Notes: generated by a model from the letters alone, not told the origin. A DNA stretch of 24,000 nucleotides from Exiguobacterium aurantiacum (GCF_024362205.1 NZ_CP101463.1:35318-59317); one strand, 5' to 3'. Numbered from the stretch's first letter, positions 15,527 through 15,637 are shown. Made by a program: numbers and translations.

Positions 15527-15637
15527 TTCAGGAAAGTGATTTTGTGACCCATTACTTACACTACCTTTTGTATCTATACTTGGTGAAAAACTGAAAACTG
15601 TCATGATTGTCATGATAATCAATATTTTTTTTACCAT
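15527..15637 (-). CDS. Putative secreted signalling pro-peptide (36 aa) cognate to the adjacent HTH-TPR regulator
   Basis: ATG overlaps the regulator stop (ATGGTAA), with GGAG 8 nt upstream. The product is MVKKILIIMTIMTVFSFSPSIDTKGSVSNGSQKSLS: a Lys-Lys n-region, a hydrophobic core and a polar tail. It is too short for the supplied ORF track. Confidence 0.6.

Follow-up and report, generated by a model that had tools for sequence, protein, structure and literature searches.

A putative IDPIHP-type signal peptide gene overlapping an NprR-like regulator gene in Exiguobacterium aurantiacum

RRNPP systems are peptide quorum-sensing systems in which a small precursor is exported and trimmed, and the resulting peptide is re-imported by an oligopeptide permease (Opp) and bound in a groove of its receptor (reviewed in PMC9765709). 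The pair NprR-NprX of the Bacillus cereus group consists of a receptor of 422-423 amino acids (aa), built from a helix-turn-helix (HTH) domain, a three-helix bundle and nine tetratricopeptide repeats (TPRs), and a 43-aa precursor encoded directly 3′ on the same strand. Residue Asn275 of NprR hydrogen-bonds to the peptide backbone and is kept in all RNPP proteins (Zouhir et al. 2013, PMC3763537), and the KRD element with Arg126, strictly conserved in NprR, drives NprX-induced tetramerisation (PMC3763537). PlcR-PapR and AimR-AimP likewise join an HTH-TPR receptor to an adjacent secreted pro-peptide with a C-terminal signal. Here we analyse a stretch of 24,000 nucleotides (nt) from Exiguobacterium aurantiacum (NZ_CP101463.1:35318-59317; "the window"), in which a 46-codon open reading frame (ORF) is very probably the pro-peptide gene of a one-component RRNPP quorum-sensing pair, with the adjacent NprR-like HTH-TPR regulator as its receptor, as judged from comparative data and a predicted structure.

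The pro-peptide gene and the predicted receptor

The ORF lies on the minus strand (Table 1). Its start codon, ATG 15637-15635, sits within the string ATGGTAA at the 3′ end of the regulator gene (...ATG ATC AGA TGG TAA). The regulator stop occupies 15633-15631, giving an overlap of 7 nt between the two genes, an arrangement that would permit co-transcription and translational coupling. The pro-peptide gene itself stops at TAA 15499-15497. A GGAG-type Shine-Dalgarno sequence was found ~6-10 nt 5′ of the start in 9 of the 9 loci compared. The N-terminus, MVKKILIIMTIMTVFSFSPS, contains two lysines followed by a hydrophobic core, whose best 11-residue Kyte-Doolittle mean is 2.84; the same measure is 2.60 for the NprX precursor of B. 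thuringiensis, which the window peptide resembles in this part. A layout of n-region, h-region and c-region is common to all homologous peptides. In the window peptide, the predicted signal sequence gives way to a polar pro-region. The predicted cleavage site after Ser20 was placed by eye.

An earlier reading of this DNA, made from the sequence alone, had located the start codon overlapping the regulator stop, the GGAG 8 nt before it (15649-15646), and the lysines and hydrophobic core, all of which the sequence bears out. It had also given the ORF 36 codons and an end at 15527 with the tail ...GSQKSLS. The ORF in fact has 46 codons, ends at 15497, and has the tail ...GSQNHFPEKIDPIHPTK. The misreading appears to stem from one surplus A in CAAAATCAC, which shifted the frame; it matters because the conserved and probably functional motif lies in the misread part. 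The observation that the tail is unlike known pheromone motifs carries over to the corrected tail, which is neither the arbitrium xxxxGG/A, nor NprX SKPDIVG, nor a hydrophobic SHP.

No NCBIfam or Pfam model, any NprX model included, matched the peptide, and an Rfam scan of the window gave no RNA family. No terminator was found 3′ of the peptide gene, which fits a co-transcribed third gene.

The longest regulator ORF begins at GTG 16905. Translation probably starts at TTG 16890, which is preceded by GGAGGAG and gives a protein of 419 aa, because NCBI records list the Exiguobacterium orthologues as 419-aa proteins (labelled "helix-turn-helix transcriptional regulator"). Pfam detected an HTH_3 domain and, weakly, TPR_12. 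When the regulator was compared with PDB sequences, the only significant matches were two NprR entries (4gpk, E 5e-6; 5dbk, E 2e-5). A tblastn search against plasmids matched a B. thuringiensis gene that is followed 3′ by an annotated "quorum-signaling peptide NprX" and then by an M4 peptidase gene; in a pairwise alignment, identity to B. thuringiensis NprR was 23% over residues 10-417.

The AlphaFold2 model, built with 44 homologues, was all-helical (mean predicted local distance difference test score, pLDDT, 92.2; predicted template modelling score, pTM, 0.86). Foldseek against the PDB ranked apo NprR first (5dbk_A, E 7.5e-8, target TM-score 0.78), the alignment covering 364 columns of this 355-residue, HTH-deleted chain. 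Rap proteins and peptide-bound NprR came next, and NprR, Rap and PlcR matches all had a probability of 1.00. The Rap entries 8rtc, 4gyo and 4i9c had target TM-scores of 0.70-0.75; PlcR was much weaker (query TM-score 0.25-0.40), and AimR was not among the top 50 matches. The model points to a TPR-type superhelical peptide-binding domain in the putative receptor. The earlier suggestion that the regulator is RRNPP-like is thus borne out both by sequence (4gpk) and by predicted fold.

Residues at positions of known function in NprR were partly kept. NprR Asn275 aligned to N273, which was Asn in 43 of the 44 family members, and Tyr193 aligned to Y192, kept in 44 of 44. F225, at the NprR tetramer interface, aligned to F224 (F or Y in 39/44). 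[quoted passage not shown] E241 was replaced by Arg (in 32/44 sequences), S274 by Tyr (Tyr or His in the family), N306 by His and D309 by Leu. Taken together, all testable features of the RRNPP class are present according to sequence and model: the TPR-type fold, HTH_3, an adjacent gene for a predicted secreted pro-peptide, and the conserved Asn.

By analogy with known pairs, the pre-pro-peptide would be exported by Sec and cleaved near Ser20, and the 26-residue pro-peptide would be trimmed extracellularly to a peptide of 6-8 residues that includes IDPIHP, with the C-terminal (K)IDPIHPT(K) as the likeliest product. This peptide would be re-imported by Opp and bind the TPR groove of the regulator, whose DNA-binding or oligomeric state would then switch. 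The response would be activation if the analogy with NprR holds, and the regulator would control neighbouring secreted-protein genes, here the divergent pair for a 173-aa protein and a 201-aa lipoprotein.

One alternative concerns the direction of the response. It is possible, though less likely, that the pair is of RRNPP type and the peptide antagonises the regulator, either by freeing it from DNA, like AimP acting on AimR, or by rendering it inactive, like Phr acting on Rap. In the fold search, Rap structures with bound peptide come close to NprR in score, and the element that drives NprX-induced tetramerisation is not conserved here. However, the nearest relative, by sequence and by fold alike, is NprR, which shares the HTH-plus-TPR architecture, and the tetramer-interface position F225 is aromatic in the query and in most of the family. 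By analogy with NprR, activation remains our preferred mode of response.

Table 1. Coordinates of the pro-peptide gene, its predicted receptor and other features of the window.
Feature	Position	Strand	Details and basis
Pro-peptide gene	15497..15637	minus	46 codons + TAA; product MVKKILIIMTIMTVFSFSPSIDTKGSVSNGSQNHFPEKIDPIHPTK; ORF list and sequence
Shine-Dalgarno GGAG	15646..15649	minus	Within the 3′ end of the regulator gene; 8 nt 5′ of the pro-peptide ATG
Predicted Sec signal peptide, residues 1-20	15578..15637	minus	n-region MVKK, h-region ILIIMTIMTVFSF, c-region SPS; hydropathy calculation
Conserved C-terminal core IDPIHPTK, residues 39-46	15500..15523	minus	Predicted mature pheromone region; cross-locus identity with synonymous codons
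NprR-like HTH-TPR regulator, putative receptor	15631..16905	minus	Longest ORF, 424 aa, from GTG 16905
HTH_3 DNA-binding domain, residues 17-65	16711..16857	minus	Pfam, E 7e-8
Third gene, 5′ fragment	15335..15460	minus	41 codons; homology to the intact 102-aa gene
Third gene, 3′ remnant	12016..12213	minus	...GTMPWLANMVFSGFLLLIYLVVAWFILKRKIVN; homology to L037
Insertion of two IS3-family elements	12214..15342		3,129 bp; orfA/orfB pairs 12258-13585 and 13652-15222; Pfam rve/HTH_28/HTH_21
Divergent intergenic region	16906..17058		Presumed promoters and operator; position
Secreted 173-aa protein and 201-aa lipoprotein genes	17059..18189	plus	Candidate targets by position only
IS21-type pairs	433-2432, 2718-5059, 5104-7262		IstA-like transposase and IstB-like ATPase
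IS30-like transposase gene	21607-22542

Conservation of the pair and of the peptide motif

A word-indexed protein search with the regulator returned 48 homologues, of which one was 96% identical, two were 50% and one was 37% identical; the others had ~25-31% identity. Among 1.84 billion cluster representatives, searched exhaustively, 4 matched at E <= 1e-30, 78 at <= 1e-10 and 523 at <= 1e-3; with only 4 matches at the strictest threshold, the close clade is rare. In genome searches, the near-identical relatives of the window locus belonged to Exiguobacterium.

An overlapping ORF with a signal peptide was present at every homologue of at least 37% identity with downstream sequence, except at one gene broken by an insertion sequence (IS), and all tails carried IDPIHP. 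In the contigs of the 50%, 50% and 37% homologues, the gene caller itself had placed genes of 48, 49 and 38 aa overlapping the regulator stop. Their products are MKKHFLTVIITLLIGAVGVTHNQEFNVGKKTNHSPTHIDPIHPTKKVR, MKKHFIKVIITLLIGSVGVTQNHEFNIIKKSNTSQLHIDPIHPTTKKTK and MRKFFKVLLIIGIITVFFGGDSILVDLIRAIDPIHPDV, each with a GGAG-type Shine-Dalgarno sequence, and their tails are ...THIDPIHPTKKVR (locus L003), ...LHIDPIHPTTKKTK (L004) and ...RAIDPIHPDV (L005/L006). The conservation of a short ORF at this overlapping position, together with the NprR/Rap-like character of the regulator, supports the view taken from the sequence at the outset that the ORF encodes a PapR/NprX/Phr-like export pro-peptide just 3′ of an HTH-TPR receptor.

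IDPIHP was identical in L003, L004, L005 and L009, the last from a B. cereus-group genome, while its six codons varied synonymously (ATT/ATC, CCT/CCG/CCA, CAC/CAT). Synonymous differences of this kind are a signature of selection on the encoded peptide. The codon pattern indicates that IDPIHP is under purifying selection across regulators whose identity falls to 37% within the close clade and, in the one B. cereus-group genome, to 29%. Among Exiguobacterium alleles, variation was confined to S20N, I21M, T23A, F35L and P36L, and EKIDPIHPTK was invariant; alleles P0049 and P0056-58 differed from the window peptide in the pro-region only. Public assemblies contain a called gene for exactly the window peptide, with neither name nor accession (P0055). 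The comparative data show the short ORF to be a real gene, since an equivalent ORF and Shine-Dalgarno sequence stand at the same junction beside regulators only 50%, 50%, 37% and ~22-30% identical, which excludes chance.

Short signal-peptide ORFs with related proline-rich tails were also found 3′ of regulators 22-30% identical to that of the window. In named organisms these tails are ...HSLPIHPPVG (Psychrobacillus sp. OK028, L007), ...RQIDPIHPPAAINSFIATLDS (B. cereus group sp. MYBK108-2, L009, receptor 29% identical), ...NSIPTILPPL (Planococcus salinarum, L012) and ...DRTVLPPAR (Jeotgalibacillus alimentarius, L013). Among metagenome loci with regulators of 24-29% identity and usable downstream sequence, 12 of 13 had tails of the form PI(H/Y)PP, (I/V)LPP or, in one case, PKPP: ...DPIHPPVG (L025, L026), ...DPIYPPVG (L027, L028), ...LPIHPPTI (L018), ...LPIHPPII (L020), ...VPIHPPVL (L021), ...IPIYPPVLS (L022), ...HILPPL (L016), ...NILPPI (L017), ...QVLPPV (L019) and ...DDPKPPGS (L024). 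Two more metagenome loci were left out of this judgement, their regulator stop being too near the contig end, and at the four most distant ones (L030-L033) no such ORF was found. NCBI labels the relatives of the peptide in other genera "hypothetical protein". The comparative set thus joins ~20 orphan peptides as one motif family, (D/L)PI(H/Y)PP and (I/V)LPP.

The motif is followed by 1-3 residues in most members, by 2-6 in the window clade and by 13 in L009. Its place near the C-terminus in most members argues for a C-terminal mature signal. Residues aligned to the NprR pocket differed consistently between the groups with IDPIHPT, LPIHPP, DPI(H/Y)PPVG and (I/V)LPP tails, which fits a role of these positions as specificity determinants.

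Neighbouring genes and insertion sequences

An uninterrupted version of the locus (L037, ~96% identical) carries, in order, a divergent gene for a secreted 173-aa protein, the regulator, the pro-peptide gene and a gene for a 102-aa membrane protein. This third gene encodes a mostly hydrophobic protein with three transmembrane segments read by eye, and is intact after the pro-peptide gene in L037, L003 and L004. In blastn, L037 aligned to window positions 17991-15343 and resumed at 12213-11734, a gap which indicates that the IS3 block split the third gene. A short dispersed repeat was also seen: L037 3039-3123, beyond the third gene, matches window 11734-11818 and 18658-18740, the latter at 76% (blastn).

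In E. alkaliphilum 12_1 (L001 5258-5706) the regulator gene is intact and the pro-peptide gene is broken twice. An A8 tract has become A7, causing a frameshift, and IS-like sequence replaces everything after ...NHLPE, removing IDPIHPTK. Such a strain might be a signal-negative "listener"; another possibility is that A7 results from an assembly error. Phase variation of the tract, which lies just 3′ of the ATG (ATGGTAAAAAAAAT), was considered and rejected as a general feature: the tract is A8 in L037, L038, L039, L040 and L042, and A7 in L001 (L041, which did not match the search pattern, was left out). Two 38-aa gene calls that had hinted at recurrent change in the A tract proved to be start-codon choices.

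The window contains three IS21, two IS3 and one IS30-like element. The IS elements have ~50% G+C, against 33-36% in the quorum-sensing module and 31-37% in the cargo regions 7000-11000 and 15000-21000. This contrast suggests that the region is a horizontally acquired island. Plasmids gave no match by megablast; matches to plasmids at the protein level were distant (23-28% identical), one of them B. thuringiensis NprR. At the DNA level no phage relative was seen either, and the viral contigs searched contained no relatives. At 18682-19290 on the minus strand lies a gene for a 202-aa protein with an N-terminal HTH_17/excisionase-like domain, which fits a mobile-element context. At 9499-10789, also on the minus strand, paired small multidrug resistance (SMR) genes (114 and 105 aa) adjoin a TetR-family regulator gene.

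That the ORF arose by chance in AT-rich DNA, or is a non-functional remnant in this strain, is very improbable: the low G+C content of the region makes long ORFs more likely to arise by chance, IS elements crowd the window and divide the neighbouring third gene, and the L001 gene has been destroyed by an IS and a 1-nt deletion, but ORF, Shine-Dalgarno sequence and motif are conserved with synonymous substitutions, both reading frames are intact in the window, and the identical peptide occurs in other assemblies.

The genes beside the regulator differ between loci. In the window, neither the 173-aa nor the 201-aa protein belongs to a Pfam family; the 201-aa protein gave weak lipoprotein-signal matches, and the 173-aa protein had only 5 homologous clusters. 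L003 and L004 have genes for a secreted 170-aa protein, a Peptidase_C92 protein and a 340-aa protein. The secreted 173-aa and 170-aa proteins of these loci show no homology, so the putative targets differ between loci. At L005/L006 767-3844, the regulator is divergent from three paralogous genes for secreted Gly/Ala-rich proteins of ~100 aa, followed by DUF5819 and HTTM/DCC1-like genes, a neighbourhood that may resemble the sdpABC cannibalism-toxin operon of B. subtilis. The Psychrobacillus and Planococcus homologues (L007 1583-2869, L011 217-1479, L012 40-2910) adjoin one or two Peptidase_S8 (subtilisin-like) genes.

In the divergent intergenic region, one promoter-like site was found on the minus strand (16975-16946). 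The region is 98% conserved among close relatives and gave no informative phylogenetic footprint.

These neighbourhoods also bear on a second alternative, in which the peptide is a secreted or membrane-anchored micro-protein without a signalling role, such as a bacteriocin or toxin or a partner of the 102-aa membrane protein, and the regulator merely controls its expression. The membrane-protein gene 3′ of the peptide gene in L003, L004 and L037 recalls toxin/immunity or peptide/exporter layouts, and the Gly/Ala-rich paralogues with DUF5819 and HTTM/DCC1 genes in L005 suggest an antagonism-related setting. However, what is conserved in the peptide is a brief proline-rich stretch located C-terminally or nearly so, unlike the amphipathic or Gly-rich core of a bacteriocin; the pro-region shows little conservation, like that of the Phr, NprX and PapR precursors; and the pairing of peptide and NprR/Rap-fold receptor persists over ~20 divergent loci while the third gene and other neighbours change. 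We consider this alternative improbable.

Relation to described systems and significance

Several observations weigh against an NprX-like signalling role for the peptide, or limit what can be transferred from NprR. The absence of KRD/Arg126 and the change of E241 to Arg mean that, on the alignment, the NprR-NprX binding mode is not simply transferable. The cleavage site placed by eye has Pro at position -2. The length after the motif, 2-13 residues, may reflect trimming at the C-terminus or a mature peptide located internally, as it is in NprX. The co-variation of pocket residues and peptide group is confounded by phylogeny. An operator search of 16880-17080 gave weak inverted repeats only, and no operator was identified; there are no Opp genes within the window; and the genes for the 173-aa protein and the lipoprotein occur without the regulator in L036. 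Finally, the third gene is broken by IS elements in this strain, and the module may be partly decayed. We nevertheless regard a pro-peptide gene paired with an NprR-like receptor as the best explanation of the locus.

NprR-NprX is the described system most like the present pair. The two receptors are of similar length (419-424 aa here, 422-423 aa in NprR), NprR is the best PDB match by sequence and by fold, and Asn275 and Tyr193 are kept. The predicted architecture agrees, with an N-terminal HTH and a helical region that superposes on HTH-deleted NprR, in keeping with the HTH, three-helix bundle and nine TPRs of NprR. The pro-peptide gene likewise lies directly 3′ on the same strand and encodes a precursor with a Sec-type signal (46 aa here, 43 aa for NprX). 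The S8 peptidase genes near the regulators of L007 and L012 echo the position of nprR beside nprA.

In other respects the two differ. Known RRNPP subfamilies have been assigned at a minimum of 30% identity over at least 80% coverage (Bernard et al. 2023), and the window regulator, at 23%, falls below this. KRD/Arg126 is missing, and E241R, S274Y, N306H and D309L alter further positions. The peptide core is IDPIHP (within EKIDPIHPTK), in contrast to (S/W)(K/R/N)PD(I/V/T)x(G/T) in NprX, exemplified by ...SSKPDIVG... in L014. The window shows no peptidase gene close to the pair, whereas the M4 gene follows nprX in B. thuringiensis. Exiguobacterium is not known to sporulate, and the role of NprR as a Spo0F phosphatase would have no obvious counterpart there. 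On four of five tests for NprR in the strict sense (identity, KRD, peptide motif and linked nprA), the present pair thus departs from NprR, and on these comparisons we would class it as an NprR-like subfamily of its own.

Other RRNPP systems are less similar. Rap-Phr pairs of Bacillus, phages and plasmids share a TPR fold that scores nearly as high as NprR and a Sec-exported pro-peptide encoded just 3′, often in overlap. However, Rap proteins have no HTH and act on protein partners as phosphatases or anti-activators, whereas the window regulator has a clear HTH_3 domain, and Phr pentapeptides and hexapeptides are not proline-rich. PlcR is a poor fold match, and the tail found here is not like that of PapR (LPFEF). 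The arbitrium system AimR-AimP is phage-borne and uses a hexapeptide ending in GG or GA, in contrast to IDPIHPTK here, and AimR lay outside the top 50 fold matches.

Published surveys place the pair in context. NprR has been found in 21 genera (Felipe-Ruiz et al. 2022), RRNPP_detector yielded 21 novel high-confidence clusters (Bernard et al. 2023), and both studies describe, from many genera of Bacillales, NprR-like receptors encoded alongside Sec-type pro-peptides, so that the existence of such a pair is unsurprising. The present family may already be among the candidate clusters of these surveys. Neither Exiguobacterium nor the PIHP motif appears in the main texts of the two surveys or in the parts of their supplements that were covered, an absence that is no proof. 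A literature search returned no description of the peptide motif (DPIHP, PIHPP, PIYPP, HILPPL or IHPPVG), no experimental work on this peptide class, and no RRNPP pair of Exiguobacterium. In one genome paper, KEGG annotation alone assigns an "NprR" gene to Exiguobacterium GX59; no peptide is described. What is new here is an uncharacterised peptide motif and the Exiguobacterium pair; the class itself is well known and densely populated.

One feature of the family is less ordinary: in the sequences compared, the signal core is kept even where receptors have diverged strongly and the hosts belong to different genera. Exiguobacterium, three other assemblies and the B. cereus-group genome, where the receptor is only 29% identical, share IDPIHP unchanged. 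Rapid divergence of pherotypes is typical of Rap-Phr, NprR-NprX and PlcR-PapR, and against that background the IDPIHP core is unusually conserved. A broader proposal, which we consider doubtful, is that proline-rich peptides of the (D/L)PI(H/Y)PP type are the pheromone class of a broad NprR-like subfamily across Bacillales. Their core would have been conserved while the receptors diverged, allowing cross-genus eavesdropping or a shared signal, and they would be bound in a mode unlike that of NprR (Arg at the E241 position and no Arg126).

In a wider view the importance of the pair is modest: much is understood about RRNPP systems, and many uncharacterised subfamilies are on record from large surveys. 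For Exiguobacterium, which had no described peptide quorum-sensing system in the literature searched, the analysis provides a concrete candidate signal-receptor pair and a likely active motif. If the IDPIHP core is the signal, synthetic peptides could be used to find the regulon and to test whether distantly related bacteria respond.

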